Under the pieces are notes generated by a model. That model was not told where the DNA came from. It saw nothing but the letters and a program-made list of their open reading frames with translations, and did no database searches. DNA of 31,490 nucleotides from an uncultured Methanosarcinales archaeon (GTDB lineage: Archaea; Nanobdellota; Nanobdellia; Woesearchaeales; CAZYIM01): positions 1 through 31,490 of the forward strand of contig CAZYIM010000033.1 of NCBI GenBank assembly GCA_964647565.1, given 5' to 3'. Of the stretch, positions 5,867 through 29,250 are shown in pieces. The translations under genes and the position numbers were made by a program. How positions within the stretch are numbered: position 1 is the first letter of the stretch; each line of letters begins with the position of its first letter.

Positions 5867-6223
5867 TCACTTCTTATATCTGAATTTCTTATTGTATTCT
5901 TTATGATTAAAAATTTCGATTACAAAGCAGATTATCTCGATCTGGTCTCCTTTGATGGTATAGAGCATTCTCCAATGGTTGGATAATTTGACACGCCAAA
6001 GGTTGTTTACTTGATATTCTTCAGGAATCTTCTTTTTTTCAATTTGAGTGCCGTAGAAAGGATTGGATTTCATGAAAGATACTTTTTGCCTGATTGAATT
6101 CATTAATTGTATTTCCTTACTTTTTTTAATACCTTTTTCCTGTTGTTGGGATACCTTTTCTTTTAGATATGTGAATATAATTTTTGCTTGGCCAATAGCT
6201 TCAATTTTGACTGATTTTATCAT
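5867..6223 (-). CDS. RelE/ParE-superfamily toxin-like protein
   Basis: 118-aa basic protein with NPFYG...LWRVKLSNHWRMLYTI...VIEIFNHKEY, the RelE-type beta-sheet signature. Confidence 0.65.
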   Translation of the reverse strand: MIKSVKIEAIGQAKIIFTYLKEKVSQQQEKGIKKSKEIQLMNSIRQKVSFMKSNPFYGTQIEKKKIPEEYQVNNLWRVKLSNHWRMLYTIKGDQIEIICFVIEIFNHKEYNKKFRYKK

Positions 6224-6284: not shown

Positions 6285-6560
6285 TTACATCTCTATGCCT
6301 TCCCTTTTCAGTCTTTCCAATTCCTCTCTTGGAGTGTAGATCCATAGAATACCCTTGGTACCGATCAGTATCTTTCCGCTGATCTGCAGATAGTCCAGGA
6401 TCTGGATTAATGTCTGGTGCATCACTTTTTTGGGCAATGTTTTTTTTAGTTTTGCGAGAGTGATTAGGTCTGTATTTTTCAAAGTATCTTCAACCATTAC
6501 AATAGTCTTAAGAGTTGGAGAATGCTGAGATTTTTTCAATAGTTGTGCTGTTTTTGTCAT
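6285..6560 (-). CDS. Small winged-HTH protein, putative antitoxin/regulator of the RelE-like gene
   Basis: wHTH-like pattern (TLAKLKKTLP...TLIQILDYLQISGKILIG) directly upstream of the toxin-like gene. ATG at 6560 preferred over TTG at 6572 because a TATAAATA box lies at 6588-6581. Confidence 0.6.
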   Translation of the reverse strand: MTKTAQLLKKSQHSPTLKTIVMVEDTLKNTDLITLAKLKKTLPKKVMHQTLIQILDYLQISGKILIGTKGILWIYTPREELERLKREGIEM

Positions 6561-6571
6561 TTTTATACTCA

Positions 6572-6608
6572 ATTAATATATATTTATATCTGATGAGTAT
6601 ATATTAAT
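6572..6608. promoter_or_regulatory. Inverted repeat overlapping the TATA box of the wHTH/RelE operon, putative operator
   Basis: ATTAATATATA (6572-6582) and TATATATTAAT (6598-6608) form a perfect 11-bp inverted repeat. It is AT-only, so chance is possible. Confidence 0.4.
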
Positions 6609-16022: not shown

Positions 16023-16679
16023 ATGATTTCAAGACAACTTATTCGAAGGCATGAGAAGACAGCCAAAGGTCCTGATGGTAAGAAACTAGATAAACCAACG
16101 CCTGAAGGTTTTGCAAACGCATACAAAAAGGGAGGAGATCTTCTAAATAAATACCCAGACTCAAAATTTTTAGCATTTCATTCTAAAGCAGATAGGACAA
16201 GAATCGCAGCAGTTGCATGGCTTCTTGGAGCAGAATCAAAAGTTATTCAGCCTTCATATGATCCTTTGCTTGACAGTGTTGCAATGGATCATGAAGCTAA
16301 GCAGAAATTAAGAGATATGTCTGACAAGCATGAACAGTATCGTAAAATCTTTGAGCTCTACACACCTGAGCTAATAGAATGCGGAAAGAATATTTCACAG
16401 TCCATATATAATGAATCTGCTTATGTCCACTCTTTTACAGACCAACCTGAGCCAGATATGGCAATCAAGATTACTCATGGTCCAATTATTGATGTTGCCT
16501 TTTTGACGATTCTTGGAAAACCAGTTAGTTATGAATCTGCACTGGAACACACAGGTCTTTTCAAAGAAGGAGAAGGATTTGATGTTGCTGTGAGGCAAGA
16601 AGGCAGTCTTTATATTGCAGACCTTAGTATAGGGGATTCTATTAAAAAAACAAGACCTCTTGAAGAACTTGCTAGATAG
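16023..16679 (+). CDS. Divergent histidine phosphatase superfamily protein
   Basis: N-terminal LIRRHE (RHG-like), LxxxG-like PTPEG, HSKADRTR (SPxxRT-like) and second His in ITHGP. TTTATAAA about 25-30 nt upstream suggests a leaderless transcript. Confidence 0.6.
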   Translation: MISRQLIRRHEKTAKGPDGKKLDKPTPEGFANAYKKGGDLLNKYPDSKFLAFHSKADRTRIAAVAWLLGAESKVIQPSYDPLLDSVAMDHEAKQKLRDMSDKHEQYRKIFELYTPELIECGKNISQSIYNESAYVHSFTDQPEPDMAIKITHGPIIDVAFLTILGKPVSYESALEHTGLFKEGEGFDVAVRQEGSLYIADLSIGDSIKKTRPLEELAR

Positions 16680-16682
16680 AAT

Positions 16683-18194
16683 TTACTTCTTTTGATATCT
16701 TTTTAATATTTTTACTGTTCCGCTTATACCATCCACTTCTATAAAATCTCCATCTTTTAGTACAAGTGTGGCTATCTTGGTGGCGACAATTGCAGGGATC
16801 TTGGCCTCTCTTGCAAGGGTGGCTGAATGTGATGTTATGCCTGTGCCTCCATTGCAGACCAGGCCGATTGCCTTAACAAAGACAGGAGCATAATTAGGCC
16901 CCAGCTGACTGGTCACAACTATATCTCCTTTTTTCACCTTGTCCATCTCATCCAGGTCTAAAACTAGTCTTACAGGGCCCTTGACAACACCTGCTGAAAC
17001 TGGAACTCCTTTAAATTCGTCAACATTCTTTTTGATTAAGACCACTTTATTGAAGAGTTTCTCTGCTCTTTTACCCAGGATGATCTCAGTTTTGCCTTTC
17101 GAAGTATTAAAAGCAGAACACTTAATCCTTTGTTTTAACTCTTTTTTAAAATTAGCATCCTTGAAAACTTGTGGAATATCATCGACCATTAAGTGTCTTG
17201 CTTCCTTCATGGTTATCTTGCATCTTTTGCAGATTTCTTTTAGGATAACATCAAAATAATGCAAGGATAAGGATGTATAAGTCTTCCTGAGTTCCTTGAT
17301 GTAGATACCCTCTCTCATTTCCGAGAACCAGTTGGCGTGATCGTGATCAATATTTGCTTCTTTTATTATTTTCTTGATATCACTCTCATGGTTCTTTATG
17401 ACTGCCTGAAGCTTTTCAAGCTGTGCAAGCGGGTTGTTCTTAAGAAGATGGGCCATCCTTTCTATGAAATCAGAATATGTGAGCACGTCATCATCATAAT
17501 CTCGAGTTATCCAAAAGAAATTGCTGGTGTGTTTTTTGAACAGATTGTTTAATTTTGTATCCTTGCGGATTAATTGCTCAGTTTTCTTGTCTTTGAAATA
17601 TGCTTTCCATTTTTTACTGTTTTCGATTTTCTTTGCCAGCTTAAGTGCTGCCAGTTTTTCTGTATTGATTATCTGTGCCCTGGGTTCGGTTGTCAATATG
17701 GTGAAGTATCTTGCTGCAGTCTCTTCATTAGGAGTTTTGGTTTTCAGATACAACCTAAGAATTCTTATCAGTCCGGGTTCAAAATCATTGATCATAAAAT
17801 AATTGGCATAGAGCTGCTTATAATGTCCGATAAACTCATTATAAGCCTGAACTATCTCTGCCTGTGTGAATTTTGAGATGTCTTCTCTTGCAAGCTGTTT
17901 TGCCCAGCTGATATAAGTATCGCCAATCTTCTTGACCTTCAGAGCCTGCTTGTGGAAGAAGTGTGGTTGTTTGAATAATTTCTTGAAGATATGGTTCTGG
18001 ATTCGCTTACCATCTTTTGTACTCCAAAATAAATATCCTACTGGGAACTTGAATAATAGTAAGATTTGCTTGTAGCTCGTACCAACAATCTTTTTATAAT
18101 CTTGGGTCAAGCTTTGCATAGAATAGACATTAGGATGTGGACTAATCCTTTGCCTGGAAGATACATTTTCCCAATCGACATCCTCTGCCTTCAT
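16683..18194 (-). CDS. PEP-utilising enzyme mobile (phosphohistidine swivel) domain protein with a large helical N-terminal domain
   Basis: C-terminal FKGVPVSAGVVKGPVRLV...GTGITSHSATLAREAKIPAIV...GDFIEVDG. No ATP-grasp or TIM-barrel domain recognisable. Confidence 0.9.
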   Translation of the reverse strand: MKAEDVDWENVSSRQRISPHPNVYSMQSLTQDYKKIVGTSYKQILLLFKFPVGYLFWSTKDGKRIQNHIFKKLFKQPHFFHKQALKVKKIGDTYISWAKQLAREDISKFTQAEIVQAYNEFIGHYKQLYANYFMINDFEPGLIRILRLYLKTKTPNEETAARYFTILTTEPRAQIINTEKLAALKLAKKIENSKKWKAYFKDKKTEQLIRKDTKLNNLFKKHTSNFFWITRDYDDDVLTYSDFIERMAHLLKNNPLAQLEKLQAVIKNHESDIKKIIKEANIDHDHANWFSEMREGIYIKELRKTYTSLSLHYFDVILKEICKRCKITMKEARHLMVDDIPQVFKDANFKKELKQRIKCSAFNTSKGKTEIILGKRAEKLFNKVVLIKKNVDEFKGVPVSAGVVKGPVRLVLDLDEMDKVKKGDIVVTSQLGPNYAPVFVKAIGLVCNGGTGITSHSATLAREAKIPAIVATKIATLVLKDGDFIEVDGISGTVKILKRYQKK

Positions 18195-18790
18195 GTTTTA
18201 TACACCTTATTGAAATCCTTCTTGAATTGGCTGAAGTTCTTATAAAGAATGGTATGCACCCCAAGCTCTCTTGCAGCTTCTAAGTTTGAATCCTGATCAT
18301 CTATATATATGACCTCTGCTGGCTTGACATTGAACTTCTTGAAGATATATCTCATGGTTTTTTTACTGGCTTTAGCCAAATTTATTTCCCAGGTATTGAT
18401 TACTGTATGGAAAAGCTTTTTGTAGCCGAGCTTCTTGTCAGTATCATACATCTGGCTACGTGTGTTCTTGCTGAGTAAGAGTGTGGTTGTTTTCTTAGAT
18501 TTGTTCTTGATGAAATTGACCATTGGAGGATTAAATCTTATGAAGCGGTAATGGATATCTCTGACTTGCTTTCCGTTGATATGCAATCCAGTCTCTTTTG
18601 CTCCTTTTTCCCATGCGTCTGCTTGTGTCATCTTTCGAGTTGCTGCCATATTAAAATACTTGGTATAAAAGACTGCATATAGGTCTTTCCAATTGCGTTT
18701 GAATCTCTTTGCCAGGGCTTGCATGGTTTCTGGGAAACCTCCTAGAAGCGTTACTCCATATGCATCAAAAATCACTAGTTTGGTTTTCAT
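18191..18790 (-). CDS. HAD-superfamily hydrolase
   Basis: Motif I LVIFDAYGV, motif II LLSKN, motif III K (LAKA), motif IV YIDDQDSNLEAARELG. Confidence 0.85.
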   Translation of the reverse strand: MKTKLVIFDAYGVTLLGGFPETMQALAKRFKRNWKDLYAVFYTKYFNMAATRKMTQADAWEKGAKETGLHINGKQVRDIHYRFIRFNPPMVNFIKNKSKKTTTLLLSKNTRSQMYDTDKKLGYKKLFHTVINTWEINLAKASKKTMRYIFKKFNVKPAEVIYIDDQDSNLEAARELGVHTILYKNFSQFKKDFNKVYKT

Positions 18791-20220
18791 TTGCTCACCT
18801 TCCTTACTATTCCTTTTTCCGCGTTAACCTCAATCACGTCTCCATCTTTTAATATCTTGGTGCAATTGCCAGTGCCGACAATACAGGGTTTTTTCAATTC
18901 CCTTGCAACAACAGCGGCATGTGATGTCACGCCGCCTTCTTCTGTCACAAAGGCAGCTGCTCTGTGCATTTCATGGGTGAAGTCTGGCATGGTGGTCTTC
19001 GCAACCAGGACATTGCCTTTTTTAACCTTGCTAAGATCCTCTTTAGACAGAACCAGAACCACTCTTCCCTTTATTTTTCCTTTGAACGCGATCATGCCCT
19101 TGATCTGCTTGTTCTTTTCTTGGGAGTTCTTTATCATTTTGATGGCCAGTTTGATAGTTGCAGCATCATGTAAAATAGTGACTTTATTGTTTTCAAAATA
19201 ATAGATGTAGTCCTGCTTAACTCTTTGTTGCACATCTTTGTAGTTGGGCAGGTTGCCTTTCTTGATGAAATCCATCAGCTCACTATGAAGTAGATTTGCT
19301 GTCATCTTTTCAGGCCAGTTTTTGCCAGAGGTTTTGGACATCTCATCAGCTATCTTGTATAATAGGCCTCTTGCCTTTGCCTGGCATCTCTTGAAATGGT
19401 CGATCCTGTCAGTACGTAAGAAGGTATATGCATGAATGATCTCAGCTAAAAGTCTTAGGTCAGGATTATGAAGCTGCTTTCTTAACTTTGCATAGTTGTT
19501 CCTATTCTTTTCAACCTCTTTTTTCATTCTCTTTATTTCTTCTCTGGCTGATTTCTTGTCAAGCTTTCTGATCTCTTTTTCAAAATATCTCTGATCCAAT
19601 AAAGGTTCAACAAACGAATACTCATTATACCAATAGAAATCTTTTGTGAGCTGATTGAGATTTTTCTTTGTTATGTTGTTTTGTATTGCAGACTCTGCAA
19701 TCCTCAGTCTCATCTTCTGGAAATCATTAAGTCTTGAAGGTGAGCAGATGATATTGAATGCCTGATCTGCTTTTTGTCCTAATTCTTTTTCTAGTAACTG
19801 TCTGAGTTCCTGGTCAAGCACTGCTTCAATTGCAAATGGCATCGCAATATTGTCTGCAAAAAGAATATTTGCATCGATCCAATCTTGGAGAATAGATTCA
19901 CATTTCTTTAGAGGTAATTTGGCGCAGGCTTTGGCGTTGTCTCCTGCCTTATGCATAGCCTTGACTGCCAGCTTATAGTCTTTAAGATGTTTTTTCCAGC
20001 CTTTGACAGTCCTGATCTTATTTGCCAGCCTGTTTAAGCTTTTTGCAGCATCGGATTGTTCCCAATAGATCGATCTAACTCCTTTTTTTAAGGGTGCAGA
20101 TGCAATCCTTATATTGTGCACCTGCCCAAAAAAGATCTTTGCCAGCTCATCCCTATGGACAGTGACTGGTCTTGTAGCAAGGATTGAAAGATTACTGAAA
20201 AATGGAGGGATCAGTTTCAT
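18787..20220 (-). CDS. PEP-utilising enzyme mobile domain protein
   Basis: C-terminal VLVAKTTMPD...TEEGGVTSHAAVVARELKKPCIVG...GDVIEVNA. Confidence 0.9.
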   Translation of the reverse strand: MKLIPPFFSNLSILATRPVTVHRDELAKIFFGQVHNIRIASAPLKKGVRSIYWEQSDAAKSLNRLANKIRTVKGWKKHLKDYKLAVKAMHKAGDNAKACAKLPLKKCESILQDWIDANILFADNIAMPFAIEAVLDQELRQLLEKELGQKADQAFNIICSPSRLNDFQKMRLRIAESAIQNNITKKNLNQLTKDFYWYNEYSFVEPLLDQRYFEKEIRKLDKKSAREEIKRMKKEVEKNRNNYAKLRKQLHNPDLRLLAEIIHAYTFLRTDRIDHFKRCQAKARGLLYKIADEMSKTSGKNWPEKMTANLLHSELMDFIKKGNLPNYKDVQQRVKQDYIYYFENNKVTILHDAATIKLAIKMIKNSQEKNKQIKGMIAFKGKIKGRVVLVLSKEDLSKVKKGNVLVAKTTMPDFTHEMHRAAAFVTEEGGVTSHAAVVARELKKPCIVGTGNCTKILKDGDVIEVNAEKGIVRKVSK

Positions 20221-21242
20221 TTTATTTTAATTATAATTCCTTTGTCTGCGTCGACTTCTACCATGTCTCCGTTACGTAGGAATTCTGTTGCAAACTTGGT
20301 GCCGATTATGCAGGGCTTGCCGAGTTCTCTGGCCACAACAGCTGCATGGCAGGTAATGCCGCCTTCATCAGTTACGATGGCTGCTGCTTTTTCCATAGCA
20401 GGTACAAAGTCGGGAGTAGTCATAGTCGAGATAAGTATTTCTCCGTCCTCCAGCTCTGTAATCTGGGATTTTTTCCTTAGGATTCTAACTTTACCCTTTG
20501 CCATTCCCTTGTTGGCAATCTGGCCTTTAAGAATTCCGCTCTTTAGGATTTCTTCTGGTATGTCTTCGAAGAGGAACTTATATTCAGGATGCTGCTTCTG
20601 GAATTCTTTAAGATCCATGAGTTCCATCTCTTGACCAGGGATAAAGATACAGTTTTTCATCCTTGCTTCTAACACAGGCCTTTCTGGCACTGCATCCAGA
20701 TCATTTAAAGTGACAACCAATTCCATGCCCTCTGCTCTTGGAAAAAGGCGGGATATGGTTTTCTTGATGATCTTTTCGCAGTCATCATAGAACGAGTCAA
20801 CCTTCCTTATCTGCATGGCCATTTCCCTAATGTCTTTAGGAGTTCTTTCATCATAAGAGCTATAATAAAAGATGACAAAGTGTCTTGAACCTAAGAACAG
20901 GAATTCTATGAACTCCTTGAGCTCTTGAATAGAATCAAGTACGCCCTTTATCTTGTATTGCTCGAGCTTTTCAAGGATTTTCATATAGGTCTGGACATGC
21001 ATCTTATAGAAGTCTTGTCCTTCCCTGTTCTTTTCCAGGAGTTTGTCAAAGAACCATTTGTAGGCCTTGTCACAGTCCCATATTTCTGTGGCTCCATTGT
21101 TGACAAAATAGATATTGGGTGGGTTGAAAGGATTCAGTTCCCCTATAGCCTTCTCAAATCCCTCTAGATGTGCATAGCTCCAGGATTCCTGTAGGATCAG
21201 GCCGTTATCCCTTGTGTATTTCTTGTTATATATGAGTGTCAT
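20217..21242 (-). CDS. PEP-utilising enzyme mobile domain protein
   Basis: C-terminal ILISTMTTPDF...TDEGGITCHAAVVARELGKPCIIG...GDMVEVDA. Confidence 0.9.
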   Translation of the reverse strand: MTLIYNKKYTRDNGLILQESWSYAHLEGFEKAIGELNPFNPPNIYFVNNGATEIWDCDKAYKWFFDKLLEKNREGQDFYKMHVQTYMKILEKLEQYKIKGVLDSIQELKEFIEFLFLGSRHFVIFYYSSYDERTPKDIREMAMQIRKVDSFYDDCEKIIKKTISRLFPRAEGMELVVTLNDLDAVPERPVLEARMKNCIFIPGQEMELMDLKEFQKQHPEYKFLFEDIPEEILKSGILKGQIANKGMAKGKVRILRKKSQITELEDGEILISTMTTPDFVPAMEKAAAIVTDEGGITCHAAVVARELGKPCIIGTKFATEFLRNGDMVEVDADKGIIIKIK

Positions 21243-22327
21243 TCTAGCTTCCTCACAATACCTTTGTTAGCATCTACCTCAACCAAGTCTCCATCCTTTA
21301 AAACCTTTGTTGCGAATTTAGTGCCGATTATGCAGGGTTTTTCAAATTCCCTTGCCATGATGGCTGCATGGCTTAATATGCCTCCTTCATCTGTGACAAT
21401 ACCTTTGCTTTGTTTCATCAAAGGGACATTCTTAGCTACTGTCATTGGTGCGACAAGAATGAATCCTCTAGTTTTGGGTTTATTGCCGGATACCAGGTTG
21501 TATACCCTTCCTTTGACAATTCCAGGATATGCAATTTTACCTTTCAGGATGCTTGTTTCTTTATTTTCAATATCAAAGCACTTTTGTTTGATATCTTTGA
21601 TGATCTTTTTATCAGTAAATACATTTTCATCCTTCTTCTTTTCCCATGTGCACAAGTAGAGATATTCCTCTTTTCTTTTTTTAAGTGTCTCAAGCTGATT
21701 TTTAGATATTTTTTGGGTTTTTAGGAATGCTTTTATCTCATCAAGGGTACAGTATCTCAGCAAAAATCCTTCAAAATGCTTTTGCTTTCCAATCAGTATA
21801 GAGCATTTGTCCAAAATAGCTTCTGTCCTTGAATAGAGCAGGGCAATAGTATTTCTTTCATTACCAATTCGCTTCATCATTCGCTTGTCAACAAGGCTTT
21901 CCTTAGTATGGTTAAAATACCTTAAGAAGCAGTTATACAAGCCCAGAATGGTCACATATTGGCTGTAGTTGGCTGTAACGACTTTCATGCATTGCAAGGG
22001 ATTTTTTTCGATCAAATCTTCGATTTTGTCTATTTTTGATTTGATTTTTTCAAATTTTTCCATACTGGGTATTAGAAAATCTTTTGCAAGAGTCTTAAGT
22101 TTTTTTTGTATGATTTTGCCAAGGTCTTTTGCGATTCGTTTCTCGTTTAATAGAGTATAAAACCAGCCATTGGAGCCGATTGCACCTACAGCGCCCCATG
22201 AGATGTTATATTCTTTTTTCATGCCTTGGGTATATGCCTCACCAACAACGCTCAAAACAAGCATAGGCTGATTTCTTTGGCTAGCAGCTTTAAGTCCATG
22301 ATTTTCGATAATCTTGATTATGTCCAT
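21239..22327 (-). CDS. PEP-utilising enzyme mobile domain protein
   Basis: C-terminal ILVAPMT...TDEGGILSHAAIMAREFEKPCIIG...GDLVEVDA. Confidence 0.9.
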   Translation of the reverse strand: MDIIKIIENHGLKAASQRNQPMLVLSVVGEAYTQGMKKEYNISWGAVGAIGSNGWFYTLLNEKRIAKDLGKIIQKKLKTLAKDFLIPSMEKFEKIKSKIDKIEDLIEKNPLQCMKVVTANYSQYVTILGLYNCFLRYFNHTKESLVDKRMMKRIGNERNTIALLYSRTEAILDKCSILIGKQKHFEGFLLRYCTLDEIKAFLKTQKISKNQLETLKKRKEEYLYLCTWEKKKDENVFTDKKIIKDIKQKCFDIENKETSILKGKIAYPGIVKGRVYNLVSGNKPKTRGFILVAPMTVAKNVPLMKQSKGIVTDEGGILSHAAIMAREFEKPCIIGTKFATKVLKDGDLVEVDANKGIVRKLE

Positions 22328-22371: not shown

Positions 22372-22403
22372 AAAAAGAAAAAGTAGGGCCCTAAAGTAGG
22401 GCC
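22372..22403 (-). terminator. Hairpin plus T-tract terminator after the 398-aa gene
   Basis: GGCCCT-ACTTT-AGGGCC stem-loop followed by T runs on the minus strand. Confidence 0.5.
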
Positions 22404-22414
22404 TCAAATAATAA

Positions 22415-23611
22415 TTATTGTGTTGGGTTACAAACCCTGCAAGCTGTGTACTTCTTCTGAAGTGCTGCCTTGTAGCTTCTGAAAAACAATCTGTCCTTGG
22501 AATCAATGTTCTTTACAAGCAAACATGATGCCTTATGGACCTTGTCTGAATCCTTGCTTCCCACAAACTTATACTTGACATGGTTTTTTACAATGACCTT
22601 AGGTTTGATATGTGGTTTGCAAAGCTTACAGCCCTTATAGCCTTCTTTTTCAGCTGCTTTCCAATTCTTGATCAGTTTTCTGTTCTCTTTAAGAACATTT
22701 CTTACAGCAATACATTTAGGCCTGTGAACAGATGATCCATCAGCACTCACAATAAGCAGCTCTTCCTCTTCTTTTTTCGCTTTTCGAATATTTCGAAGAG
22801 TCTTTGAGTACTTGCTTTTTAGCTCAGCTTCATGGTCAAGCTCTTTTTGGCTCTTGTTCAGTTGCCGCTTGAGGGTGTTGGTTTCCTTTGACATCTCAGC
22901 GATTGCAGCTGTTTTTTTGCTTAGAGTCTTGTTTTTCTCTGCTAAAGCCTGCTTCTTCTTATCAAGCTCAGAGACAATCTCTTGGCTCTTCTTGATCTCT
23001 CTTGAAGCTTTGTTCATATCTTTTCTCACTTCAGCGAGTTGAGCCTTGATCTTTTTGACCTCATCAGCCTTATTAGCATTTTGGGTCTTGTAGCTTGCTA
23101 CGAGCTTAAGCTTGGCTTGCAGCTCCTTGTCTTTCTTTGCAAGGGCATTATCATGTGCTTTCTCAAGCCGGGTCATCTTGTTCTCTTGTTCTTTCTCAAG
23201 CTTGACCAATTGGCTTTCCTGTTCCTTGACCTTTAACAGATATCTCCTGACAACTTTAAGCTTAGCCAGGATATATTGCCTATAGTCAAGCAGTGAAAGC
23301 AATAGTGCAACAAGGGCGGCTGTCACAAAAAAGAGTTTCGCCATTGGTAACAATGCGAAATCCATTATCTCAAACACCAGCAATATGAGCATAACCACAA
23401 ACAATGCTATGTAATAATAGCGTGACCAGCTTCTTTTATTCCTGATGGAGGCGATGAATAGTCCCAATAAAGCGAGTGCAAAGGCAGCCAATGAAAAGAA
23501 CTTTCCTAGTAGCGCCATTGTACCACTAAACAGGGTTGCGGTAAGAAAGTATAAGAATAGACTTACCAACAAGATAAAAATGAAAAATGGTATTGATTTT
23601 TGGTTCTTCAT
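22415..23611 (-). CDS. Membrane protein with long coiled coil and two Ada-type metal-binding domains
   Basis: Four N-terminal TM helices and a K/E coiled coil, then VHRPKC...GCKLCKP and VHKASC...ACRVCNP. Confidence 0.75.
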   Translation of the reverse strand: MKNQKSIPFFIFILLVSLFLYFLTATLFSGTMALLGKFFSLAAFALALLGLFIASIRNKRSWSRYYYIALFVVMLILLVFEIMDFALLPMAKLFFVTAALVALLLSLLDYRQYILAKLKVVRRYLLKVKEQESQLVKLEKEQENKMTRLEKAHDNALAKKDKELQAKLKLVASYKTQNANKADEVKKIKAQLAEVRKDMNKASREIKKSQEIVSELDKKKQALAEKNKTLSKKTAAIAEMSKETNTLKRQLNKSQKELDHEAELKSKYSKTLRNIRKAKKEEEELLIVSADGSSVHRPKCIAVRNVLKENRKLIKNWKAAEKEGYKGCKLCKPHIKPKVIVKNHVKYKFVGSKDSDKVHKASCLLVKNIDSKDRLFFRSYKAALQKKYTACRVCNPTQ

Positions 23612-26205: not shown

Positions 26206-26868
26206 ATGAAATATTCTAAATTGGTGATTTTTATGGATTTAGATATTATAAAATTGAAAAAAACAAATAAATTAGCATTATTGTTAGGATTATTTATTGG
26301 TGATGGCTGCTTACCTGTAAGTCATAATGGAGATGGTAATCGTATTTATCCAATCAGGTTTTATAATACCAATAAAGTATATGTGAAGTTGTTTTCTGAT
26401 TTGTTTTTTGATTTATTTCAAATTAAAGGAACTGTTAGAGGTAGAATAAGAGAAAATAAAAAGATATTATGGGAATTTGAAAAATACTCTGTATATCTTT
26501 ATAAACTCATTAATTCTGAATTAGAAGTGCCTAGCGGAAAAAAAGCATCTCAAGTATGGATACCTTCTTTCATTAGAAATGGAACTCTTAAAATTAAAAA
26601 ATCCTTTTTCCTTGGTTTATTTATATCTGATGGCGGTTTAAAAAAAGACGGGAGTATAATATTTCATTCTGCTAGTCAGAGATTAATGTTTGACTTAAGG
26701 AAATTAATTCATTCTATTTGGGGCTTTGAACGAGATGTGAAATCATATTTACAGAAAGATAAATATCTCTCGTATCAGTTAACTTTAAAAAAAGAACAAG
26801 TTTCTATAATAACGAAACAAATGCCACTGTCGCATAACTCGGTATTGCGCCGATTATCCGAAAGATAA
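26206..26868 (+). CDS. Free-standing two-motif LAGLIDADG endonuclease-like protein
   Basis: LALLLGLFIGDGC and FFLGLFISDGG motifs. Alternative start at ATG 26233 with a GGTGA SD. Markedly AT-rich. Confidence 0.85.
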   Translation: MKYSKLVIFMDLDIIKLKKTNKLALLLGLFIGDGCLPVSHNGDGNRIYPIRFYNTNKVYVKLFSDLFFDLFQIKGTVRGRIRENKKILWEFEKYSVYLYKLINSELEVPSGKKASQVWIPSFIRNGTLKIKKSFFLGLFISDGGLKKDGSIIFHSASQRLMFDLRKLIHSIWGFERDVKSYLQKDKYLSYQLTLKKEQVSIITKQMPLSHNSVLRRLSER

Positions 26869-26959
26869 GCGTAAGCCTTGAGTGATATTTTTCACTTTGG
26901 AAAAATACCTGGTTAGCCGGTTCCTTCGGGAATTCCCAGTTCAAATCTGGGCGGTGGCG
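26823..26959 (+). tRNA. tRNA-Ser(UGA) with two introns (26853-26874 at position 29/30; 26883-26914 at position 37/38)
   Basis: Acceptor GCCACTG/CGGTGGC with discriminator G; D arm GCA..GGT..TGC; spliced anticodon arm CCGGC-CTTGAGA-GCCGG; long variable arm TTCC-TTCG-GGAA; T arm CCCAG-TTCAAAT-CTGGG. Confidence 0.92.
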
Positions 26960-26970
26960 TCCCTTAGAAG

Positions 26971-27011
26971 TAGTAACGAAAAATGGTCTTCAACAGGCCA
27001 TTTCGTTACTA
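26971..27011. repeat. Inverted repeat between the tRNA 3' end and the integrase
   Basis: TAGTAACGAAA...TTTCGTTACTA arms with an inner ATGG/CCAT pair. Possible terminator or integrase binding site. Confidence 0.6.
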
Positions 27012-27044
27012 TATAATGACGAACTATTTCTTTGGAGGTAAAAA

Positions 27045-27443
27045 ATGAAAGAAGAGATAGATATACATAACTACCCCAACAGACTTGCATCAGTAACCAA
27101 GCTTGTTAAAAAGTCTGCGATTTCTGAACAGAACAAGAAACTCATATTCGAGTTTCACGAATATACCATCCTGGACGGGATCAGCATAGCCAGAAGATCA
27201 CGATATCTAGGGATTTTGAAAAACTGGGCAGTAATTCTTGGAAAAGACTTCGATAAGGCCTCAAAAGAAGATATAATGCGCTCAGTGCGCATTGTACAGG
27301 AGACTGAAAAGTATTCACCCTGGACAAAATCAACCTATAAGACCATGCTAAAAAGATTCTATAAATGGCTAAAACAAGAAGAGAACCCAAAAGAGACTGC
27401 ATGGATAAAATGCAAGATCAAGCTAACTGAAAAAAAACTTCCC
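27045..27443 (+). pseudogene. Tyrosine integrase, N-terminal core-binding part only (catalytic domain missing)
   Basis: IDIHNY...ISEQNKKLIFEF...YSPWTKSTYKTMLKRFYKWL...PKETAWIK pattern immediately downstream of a tRNA. After KKLP the frame becomes non-homologous and stops at 27548. No R-H-R-Y catalytic region. Confidence 0.7.
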
Positions 27444-29250
27444 CTTCACCAGCCAATTCTTCCAAGTAGACCAAACAGGAGTCTGGCTAGGCCTAAACAA
27501 GAACAAAATACCCATAATAAGAGACATCTTCAAGCTACCCAACCCTAATGGCCTCGTGCTCTCACAATCAGGAGGCGGAAAAAGCTACTTCTGCAAACTA
27601 TTAGTGACAAGATACCTGCTAAACAACACCAAAGTAATGATCATAGACCCACAAGGAGAATACAACCAACTAGTAAAGCACTTCAAAGGCCAAAGAATAA
27701 ACCTCTCCAGAACATCAAAAACCATAATCAACCCCCTAGACCTCATGGGACACGATTACGCAGAGAAAAGACTCAGCCTAATGGACCTGATGCAAGTACT
27801 GCTAGGAGAGCTCACAGAACCCCAAAAAGCCTTCATAGACCGCGCAATAACAGAAGCCTACAACAAGAAAGGCATAACAGACAACCCAGACACATGGAAC
27901 TACACACCACCCATACTAGGAGACCTGCTGCAAGTGCTCGTAAACATGGAAAAAAGAGCATTAACACTCGAAAAAACCACCATAAGAAGCCTAATCAACA
28001 GACTCAGCCTTTATGTTGATGGGGTTTTCAGCTTCCTGAACAGGCATACCAACATCAACTTCAACAACAGATTCGTTTGCTTTGATATTGGGAACATGCC
28101 AAAACAAGTAAAACCAGTCATAATGTTCCTTGTACTGGACTATGTCTATATGAAGATGAAAAAAGACATAGACAGAAAAATATTGTTGATTGATGAAGCC
28201 TGGTCCCTGCTCTCAAGAACCGAAGACGCCACCTACATCTTCGAAATTGTCAAGACATGCAGAAAGTTCAACCTCGGCCTCTTATTGATAAATCAGGAAG
28301 TTGAGGGTTTGCTGAACAGCGAAGCAGGAAAATCAGTCTTGGCCAATTCGGCCTACGCTCTCTTAATGAGGCAAAAGCCAGCTGTAATTAAGGATGTGTG
28401 CAACACCTTCAACCTAAGCAGTCCAGAAAAGACAAGGCTGTTGACAGCTAATGTTGGCGAGGGCATCCTGATAATGGAGGATGACCATTCTGAAATCAAG
28501 ATAATAGCATCTGGAGAAGAGCACAAGATAATCACAACGAACGCAGACGAACTCATAGAACAAGGCAAAACGAAAGCAAAAAAGCCCAAAAGTAGAGTGA
28601 AGGGCAAGACGAAAGAACCAACGCCTGAAAACGCTTCAAGTACAGAACCGGATGAGCGCCTCACCGAACCGGCAGAGCAGGAGGTGAGCATCAAAGTAGA
28701 TGAGTACAAAGGATTTTACAGGCACAAGGATTTGAATCTGCACGAGATTAAGTATTTGCTGGCAAAGAAGTATCAGGCGATTGACAGGGTAAGCATGGTT
28801 TCAGAAAAGAACGAAAGCTTCCTTGTCAAGCCAAGGTTTAACGAAAGCATCAACCACTGCTTTGTAATACATGACATAGCGGACTATTTGGAAACGAAAG
28901 GAGTCAAGGTGAAGAAGTTCATAACCAAAAAACCAGACTTAACCTTTGAGATTAACGGAGAGAAATATGCAATCGAGGTTGAAACAGGAATGACCCTGGC
29001 AAAGGCCAAGAAACAAGTGCTGGAAAAAGTACAGCTTCTAAACAAGAACTATGACAACTGGTTTTTTGTGGTACTGGACAAGAACATGGTAAAGAAATAT
29101 AGACAGTTCGGAAAAGTAATAGACCGAAGATATCTCAAAGGAAGAATTCAAAAAATGCTGAAAATAGAACCCGAAAAAAAGGAGTCGAGAAACAACGTTC
29201 TCGACGACAAAACAACAACAAAAAGTCAAAATAGTCCGCCAATATATTAG
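27439..29250 (+). CDS. VirB4/TraG-like P-loop ATPase, 5'-truncated, with C-terminal PD-(D/E)xK-like domain
   Basis: The frame is open from 27427 with FPFTSQFFQVDQTGVWLGLN...NPNGLVL upstream of the tracked GTG start at 27556. Walker A SQSGGGKS, IIDPQGEY, INPLD, Walker B LLIDEAW, RKFNLG; tail PDLTF...AIEVETG. Confidence 0.85.
   Translation, partial: FPFTSQFFQVDQTGVWLGLNKNKIPIIRDIFKLPNPNGLVLSQSGGGKSYFCKLLVTRYLLNNTKVMIIDPQGEYNQLVKHFKGQRINLSRTSKTIINPLDLMGHDYAEKRLSLMDLMQVLLGELTEPQKAFIDRAITEAYNKKGITDNPDTWNYTPPILGDLLQVLVNMEKRALTLEKTTIRSLINRLSLYVDGVFSFLNRHTNINFNNRFVCFDIGNMPKQVKPVIMFLVLDYVYMKMKKDIDRKILLIDEAWSLLSRTEDATYIFEIVKTCRKFNLGLLLINQEVEGLLNSEAGKSVLANSAYALLMRQKPAVIKDVCNTFNLSSPEKTRLLTANVGEGILIMEDDHSEIKIIASGEEHKIITTNADELIEQGKTKAKKPKSRVKGKTKEPTPENASSTEPDERLTEPAEQEVSIKVDEYKGFYRHKDLNLHEIKYLLAKKYQAIDRVSMVSEKNESFLVKPRFNESINHCFVIHDIADYLETKGVKVKKFITKKPDLTFEINGEKYAIEVETGMTLAKAKKQVLEKVQLLNKNYDNWFFVVLDKNMVKKYRQFGKVIDRRYLKGRIQKMLKIEPEKKESRNNVLDDKTTTKSQNSPPIY

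Follow-up and report, generated by a model that had tools for sequence, protein, structure and literature searches.

Phosphohistidine-swivel modules encoded beside two phosphatase-like genes in a woesearchaeal genome: probable acceptor halves of a split dikinase

The operon and its genes

The stretch of DNA considered here (the window) is a contig of 31,490 nucleotides (C33) from the 2.68-Mb genome of an uncultured archaeon of the Woesearchaeales (G000, 87% complete). It contains no N, and archaeal-type ribosomal genes lie directly beside the operon that is the subject of this work. According to the list of open reading frames (ORFs) of the window, this operon consists of five minus-strand genes at 16683-22327, encoding proteins of 362, 341, 477, 199 and 503 amino acids (aa). 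Four of them are modules that end in a swivel domain with a phosphorylatable histidine, read here as probable acceptor halves of a split dikinase, and the fifth is a hydrolase of the HAD type.

In the order of transcription, the operon begins with two short modules, one of 362 aa (21239..22327, minus strand; acceptor domain and swivel His320 in the motif ILSH, recognized by PF00391) and one of 341 aa (20217..21242, minus; swivel His299 in ITCH, with a reduced acceptor domain according to its model and fold match). They are followed by a long module of 477 aa (18787..20220, minus; His434 in VTSH, assigned by alignment to the long-family profile), by the HAD-IA phosphatase-like protein of 199 aa (18191..18790, minus) and by the core long module of 503 aa (16683..18194, minus; His456 in ITSH). 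The start of each downstream gene is an ATGA that overlaps the stop of the gene before it, which gives four overlaps among five genes. Such coupling is found in 243 of 1468 same-strand gene pairs (17%) as against 19 of 23 module–module pairs, and because of this low background four overlaps in series are not attributable to chance. Pfam recognizes PF00391 alone in the four modules and HAD families in the 199-aa protein; thus the content reported in the first-pass annotation (five genes, four overlaps, four swivels with their His and one HAD) is fully recovered.

The swivel domains are 34–51% identical to each other. The N-terminal regions that precede them (~230-385 aa) share 21–29% pairwise identity in forced global alignments, so that their described divergence holds; they had also been called helical, but models of the 503- and 341-aa proteins display an alpha/beta part together with a helical bundle. 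A crude hydropathy scan revealed no membrane segments in the five proteins. Named relatives of the modules belong to Nanoarchaeota, Woesearchaeota and Patescibacteria, and the host is accordingly taken to be a Woesearchaeota-like DPANN archaeon. The limits first given to the unit, 16683-22327, are right for the five genes, but the unit also reaches a divergent histidine-phosphatase-like gene of 218 aa (16023..16679, plus strand; defined by neighbour alignment and profile) that converges on the operon end and is conserved at related loci.

Fold of the modules and likeness to rifampin phosphotransferase

From 104 sequences the 503-aa protein was modelled with a pLDDT of 95.2, and the six best Foldseek matches of this model are all rifampin phosphotransferase (RPH; best E 2.3e-13, TMq 0.54). 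With VIA-align, residues 2-498 fall on residues 321-867 of RPH 5hv1 (Z 19.5, 433 aligned, rmsd 5.8), the remaining high rows covering the swivel only. Since RPH's ATP-grasp domain occupies residues 1-314 (PMC4844700, partial text), the 503-aa module corresponds to RPH without its ATP-grasp. The model of the 341-aa protein (pLDDT 96.6) also aligns to 5hv1, over 326-867 of the chain (Z 18.9, 284 aligned, rmsd 6.3), and this module may be a reduced, less certain version of the same acceptor domain and swivel. At the family level, the full-length long-family profile extends into the acceptor domain of RPH (residues 452-866); the 477-aa module aligns with this profile over 426 columns, and the alignment of the 362-aa module begins only at residue 178. 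Searched against PDB sequences, a profile of the N-terminal region by itself retrieved nothing better than E 0.038, so that the link with RPH depends on the models and on the full-length profile. The swivel motif T/SxxGGxxxH (PMC12167813, partial text) and its His are present in all four modules, the Gly loop of the 503-aa module being one residue longer.

In RPH, transfer to the acceptor requires the residues of R666-E667-x-x-K670 (PMC4844700, partial text). Profile alignment places K300-E301-x-R303-K304 of the 503-aa module on this site, and R14, K126, R231, R294, K300, E301, R303 and K304 are each conserved in at least 90% of 32 sequences of the 503-type subfamily. The strongly basic character of the resulting pocket suggests an acceptor that is anionic or already phosphorylated. 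Comparison of 98 sequences shows conservation of R11, D12, R146 and D149 of the 341-aa module.

These structure matches, together with the family profile, make an RPH-like architecture of the modules all but certain, and they bear out the earlier proposal of a layout like RPH minus its ATP-grasp. The likeness to RPH-Lm (5fbs/5fbt/5fbu, 5hv1; PMC4844700, partial text) concerns the acceptor domain and swivel fold. RPH is a single chain with its own ATP-grasp, whereas the modules cover only its residues 321-867; identity to RPH is ~15-18%, far under family cut-offs, and the modules carry no sign of rifamycin binding. Among ESM Atlas clusters, all unnamed, one with 21% Rph_4th is a lead only.

The modules share the swivel and its His with pyruvate phosphate dikinase (PPDK) and enzyme I of the phosphotransferase system (PTS). 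In sequence the swivels are nearest to PEP synthase (PPS), which could make them ordinary PPS or PPDK variants or decayed fragments. Against this, neither an ATP-grasp nor a PEP-binding barrel, the folds that the first-pass annotation had singled out as telling, appears in the two models or in the Pfam scan. In the genome, the barrel PF02896 has two matches, which lie in an intact PPS (C42) and an intact PPDK (C23) and not in modules or free, and HPr was not found in the 87% of the genome at hand. A further argument against it is the abundance of the long-form N-terminal profile in public data, where it finds 6,937, 5,297 and 2,394 clusters (50% identity) at E <=1e-3, 1e-10 and 1e-30. Such an origin can practically be dismissed.

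A shared ATP-grasp donor

The absence of a kinase domain holds for the operon but not for the genome. The search for a stand-alone PPDK_N gene proposed with the first annotation was successful: a protein of 295 aa is encoded at G000 C3:75751-76638 (E 1.7e-80), inside an array of 23 modules. It is PPS-like, matching PPS (E 2.5e-72) and the ATP-grasp of RPH (E 1.9e-59), and motifs bearing RPH K22 and R117 are visible in its alignments. The genome holds 49 swivel ORFs, or 47 without PPS and PPDK (three of them short or fragmentary), against this one strong stand-alone ATP-grasp.

The same association extends to other genomes. An extra ATP-grasp was found in 19 of 21 swivel-rich genomes of the same order, chosen for at least seven swivel matches, as a complete ORF of 289-333 aa in 16 and fused to modules in three. 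In 40 genomes picked among the single-swivel ones of that order, no second PPDK_N match reaches E<1e-70, and one genome carries a 312-aa frame at 1.6e-43; both samples include kin and are not independent. An apparent stand-alone ATP-grasp on G152 C9 proved to be a PPS-like frame cut by the contig end and was removed from the count.

Fusions connect the two parts directly. On G154 C37 (L020:14314 to L021:8919), a frame of 4,201 aa joins eight swivels, a receiver-like domain and a C-terminal ATP-grasp, its units including relatives of the 503-aa (39.5%) and 477-aa (35%) N-termini. Further module and ATP-grasp fusions occur in P0014, P0022, P0031, P0044, P0063, P0093 and P0118, and relatives of the 362-aa module (36% N-terminal identity) adjoin a stand-alone ATP-grasp gene in G158 and share a gene run with one in G073. 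From the stand-alone gene and its co-occurrence with module expansion it is very likely that the modules are loaded in trans by a shared ATP-grasp, in line with the transfer in trans first suggested for the operon.

The operon without ATP-grasp and the genome ratio of ~47 to 1 could also be explained by a pool of transphosphorylases, in which modules would be loaded from host-derived phosphorylated metabolites and phosphate would move between acceptors or paralogues with little need of the ATP-grasp. A precedent exists in HpeH, which, in the absence of HpeI, carries phosphate over from a product to a different substrate (PMC12167813, partial text). Yet the extra ATP-grasp follows the expansion of modules (19/21 versus 0/40) and is repeatedly fused to them, which renders such a pool improbable.

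Several observations accompany these results. Two weaker PPDK_N-like proteins are encoded in the genome, at C20:44244-46238 (664 aa, its tail long and acidic) and C5:25003-27102 (699 aa), and similar frames of 414-578 aa are present in single-swivel genomes. A relative of the 16023-16679 gene stands just upstream of the G154 polyprotein on the opposite strand. In G007 C1, L058:3-11792 belongs to an open frame of 6,471 aa, towards the end of which PP2C, PPDK_N and swivel matches are found.

Size and age of the repertoire

The 47 swivel genes occupy 2.4% of the genome, and 23 of them form the single array on C3. Large repertoires are patchily distributed, at least 10 swivel matches being found in 17 of 150 same-order genomes (G105 and G124 enter this survey in the denominator only). 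For 33 of 46 module N-termini, the closest relative is a module of another genome and not one of their own genome, which speaks against recent local duplication as the origin of the modules and fits old, shared subfamilies, as judged by sequence.

The array itself (G000 C3:48092-80569; L001, L002) encloses the stand-alone ATP-grasp; its module at 66201-67323 is interrupted by a run of N, and past its end come a TrmB-like gene, a low-molecular-weight protein tyrosine phosphatase (LMW-PTP)-like gene and HADs. Elsewhere in the genome, a 119-aa stand-alone swivel lies behind a HAD-like gene (C11:61072-62060), and a 213-aa swivel protein has a short unrelated N-terminus (C29:11242-11883).

Phosphatase partners of the 503-aa module

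The 199-aa protein is recognized by TIGR01509 (37.2 bits versus a cut-off of 29.4). None of 33 sequences deviates at its D9, K140, D164 and D165. Motif I of HADs usually reads DxD; here it is D-A-Y, and the second Asp is absent in most of the clade. This clade of 14 rows (support 100/99) mixes archaea and bacteria, mostly Patescibacteria. In the protein P0123 the two parts are joined into one chain and keep the gene order of the window, with 35% identity to the window's HAD over 196 aa and 33% to its 503-aa module over 496 aa. When genome loci were sought by the HAD alone, 12 of 14 had it adjoining or fused to a module; in seven a 503-type module follows directly or is fused, and in seven an ATP-grasp occurs within 6 kb. 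Among 13 more distant HAD-IA genes of the order, taken as a control, 12 lack any module at up to 1.5 kb and the other is module-fused (L062, a duplicate, and L073, a split gene, are left out of this count). Strong members of the clade occur in only two of 301 order genomes (G105 and G124 may be among those of the 301 that are not listed), and for this reason the HAD/503-type cassette has probably been exchanged across domains.

Metagenomes agree with this picture. Of 52 loci examined, 44 are above the 503-type threshold and eight were left out. Where there is upstream room, the HAD is directly before or fused to the 503-type module in 17 of 36 loci and within the locus in 20 of 36; where 3 kb are available on either side, an ATP-grasp is present in nine of 17. 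Several loci appear to be near-duplicates, and these counts accordingly overstate independence. A role of the HAD as eraser for the whole repertoire was considered and rejected: only two of the 21 HAD-like genes of this genome adjoin a module (p=0.05), a signal that vanishes at wider spacing, although the count omits C7:13284 and C11:61428, HAD-like starts seen by eye directly upstream of swivel genes and missed by the profile. The HAD is thus tied to one module subfamily, the 503 type, and not to the repertoire, and the eraser role first ascribed to it does not hold as a general one.

The second phosphatase-like gene, at 16023-16679, has by itself no Pfam or NCBIfam family match. Its alignment with module neighbours (32 sequences) contains invariant R9-H10 and R58, with S54 and H152 conserved in at least 90%, and Pfam His_Phos_1 is matched by 13 of the 32. 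A profile of these sequences matches 66 PDB sequences (best 1h2e, E 2.6e-13), among them the putative SixA 4hbz. As it was built partly from genes at the loci in question, independent support comes from the Pfam and PDB matches. A histidine phosphatase lies within ~2.5 kb in 33 of 37 related loci with at least 900 nt downstream, and is immediately convergent, as in the window, in 24 of 37; the genes found between a 503-type module and the ATP-grasp at metagenome loci are likewise divergent histidine phosphatases. In this genome the profile retrieves no more than four genes, two being its own members. Tried as a genome-level marker, histidine phosphatases did not discriminate (14 of 17 expanded versus 12 of 22 single-swivel genomes), and only adjacency to modules is informative. 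Together, the histidine phosphatase, the HAD and the 503-aa module constitute a conserved core, and clustering with phosphatases, which had been anticipated, recurs at 503-type loci across genomes and metagenomes.

RPH as nearest solved fold, the large and patchy repertoire and a HAD clade shared by archaea and bacteria are in keeping with a detoxification array, in which each module would inactivate a host or competitor toxin by phosphorylation and phosphatases would repair off-target hits. This idea is poorly credible: the NCBIfam RPH models score 53-77 bits on the modules versus a cut-off of 999 (NF041857), PADLOC gave no match, and inactivation would tend to be undone where kinase module and phosphatase are one chain.

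Neighbours, fusions and a possible signalling role

Within three genes of modules or ATP-grasps, in regions selected around modules of 21 genomes, this one included, TrmB-like regulators recur in 11 genomes, hexapeptide acyltransferases in six, and a second HAD type, LMW-PTP-like proteins and phosphate acetyltransferase (PTA) in five each. In this genome, seven of 39 TrmB-like genes (p=0.002) and all three LMW-PTP-like genes are within three genes of modules. Modules are also fused to receiver domains, to PTA or to HTH_3 (L042:10009-11934, P0028, P0024, P0136); receiver fusions are L042, the G154 polyprotein and P0028, and the HTH fusion is P0136.

Such partners raise the possibility of a signalling network. 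The ATP-grasp would load every His, N-terminal ligand sensors would set the lifetime of the His-phosphate, and the HAD, histidine phosphatases, LMW-PTP-like proteins and receiver domains would erase or accept phosphate and pass the state to regulators. This possibility draws on the fusions and neighbours just described, on the match to a putative SixA, on the degenerate acceptor motif of many modules and on the chemistry of the phosphatases: covalent phospho-enzymes arise in the HAD, histidine-phosphatase and LMW-PTP classes, some of which also attack P–N bonds. It is nevertheless rather unlikely, since the 503 type retains RPH-like acceptor-site residues, the receiver and HTH fusions amount to just four of 24 proteins picked for unusual length, TrmB-like genes are numerous here and may be plain local regulators, and the PTA fusion and PTA neighbours point to metabolism. 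In a fuller and equally tentative version, ultra-small archaea and bacteria would possess a phosphohistidine network that is neither PTS nor two-component, one ATP-grasp writing onto dozens of ligand-gated swivel modules. Its 503-type core might make and clear a control metabolite or reset His-phosphates, and receiver, HTH and TrmB-like proteins might read the state. If true, host-dependent cells would own a broad chemical sensing system.

In L034, L035 and L037 (G094, G131), methyltransferases, hexapeptide acyltransferases and a Cys/Met PLP enzyme are interspersed in the module arrays and may hint at the substrates of other module subfamilies.

Proposed mechanism and comparison with known systems

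On balance, the locus probably belongs to a small-molecule kinase system, a split RPH-type water dikinase accompanied by product phosphatases. Its premises, namely two module folds, the swivel His, the stand-alone ATP-grasp and its co-occurrence, the fusions and the gene order, come directly from computation, and the phosphotransfer chemistry is modelled on known enzymes. The four modules would be the acceptor halves, and one shared ATP-grasp, that at G000 C3:75751-76638, would bind ATP. By analogy, the swivel of a module may dock transiently on the ATP-grasp, with transfer of the beta-phosphate to the swivel His and release of AMP and Pi; it would then swing back and pass the phosphate to a small molecule in the N-terminal pocket of the same module. 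A defined substrate of its own is probable for each module subfamily. The two phosphatases most likely strip phosphate from what the system produces, whether to close a phosphorylate–use–release route or to repair unwanted phosphorylation. That the acceptors are small molecules, that swivel and ATP-grasp dock physically and what the phosphatases act on are points that we infer.

The nearest relatives in layout are the two-part small-molecule dikinases HpeHI of Rhodococcus, CreHI of Corynebacterium and the phenylphosphate synthase PpsAB of Thauera (PMC12167813, partial text), in which, as here, an acceptor domain and a C-terminal swivel make up one chain and the ATP-grasp another. HpeH and HpeI are active without a stable complex and form AMP (PMC12167813, partial text). 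A phosphatase of the same pathway, HpeD, whose closest characterized homologue is NagD, dephosphorylates a downstream product (PMC9618137, partial text), which can be compared with the HAD and histidine phosphatase of the locus. The differences are substantial. The known systems are single H and I pairs acting on phenols, with one ATP-grasp subunit per acceptor encoded together, whereas ~47 divergent modules here correspond to one strong ATP-grasp, often on another contig; modules measure 341-503 aa versus 71 kDa for HpeH; and the modules here are accompanied by a HAD clade of their own and by divergent histidine phosphatases, with no recurring carboxylase. The best reading is thus, by analogy, a one-to-many version of HpeHI, CreHI and PpsAB with its own phosphatases. 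An RPH-type system lacking its ATP-grasp, as first envisaged, is right in layout, but the split layout is of a kind already known (PMC12167813, partial text); the one-to-many repertoire and the core of HAD, 503-type module and histidine phosphatase were not found in print. Literature searches, which covered listings and main texts and no supplements or subscription journals, returned no description of a one-to-many system, and main-text term searches of PMC8204110, PMC6744442 and PMC8421398 gave nothing relevant, though their supplements may list these families.

Some results weigh against a split dikinase. The C3 ATP-grasp and the C33 operon are on different contigs, and no extra ATP-grasp was found in two of the 21 swivel-rich genomes (G109 and G110, both fragmented assemblies). 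Models support the fold for two modules, 503 and 341 aa, and a profile only for the 477-aa module; the match of the 341-aa model is the weaker one, Foldseek placing RPH first but with TMq 0.32 and rmsd 6.3. Outside the 503 type the acceptor motif is badly preserved: 61% of 104 long-family rows have an acidic residue at the position of RPH E667, and the 477-aa module reads R269-T270-x-R272-I273, which keeps one of three RPH motif residues (R269). Between kinase and phosphatase, the 503-type loci share no recurrent converting enzyme such as HpeCBA, so that a simple catabolic route is not evident. Finally, the receiver and HTH fusions and the TrmB-like neighbours are compatible with signalling too.

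A split dikinase of this kind would matter for several reasons. A cell with a small genome invests heavily in modules whose acceptor domain is present in thousands of public clusters, and their targets are probably central to the uptake or sensing of host or environmental chemicals by DPANN and Patescibacteria. The system should be rebuildable in vitro from one ATP-grasp and any module, and substrates could therefore be screened without culture; the window, with a conserved module and two dedicated phosphatases, would be the best place to start. Biocatalysts could also be drawn from such a plug-in kinase kit, whose natural pockets number in the thousands.

Other features of the window

A scan with the bacterial promoter consensus yielded 18 sites versus 19.6 in shuffles, in a host of archaeal type, and no tRNA genes are present in the window. 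At 5867-6223 a ParE/YoeB-like gene falls below the Pfam cut-off, with a small ORF directly upstream (6285-6572). The region 26206-29250 contains a LAGLIDADG-like gene, an integrase N-terminal SAM-like piece and a TraG/VirB4-like ATPase. Upstream of the operon and on the same strand, a gene of 398 aa (22415-23611) combines a hydrophobic N-terminus, a long Lys/Glu-rich middle and an Ada-type metal-binding match, and a hairpin with a T-run (22387-22403) is located between this gene and the operon.

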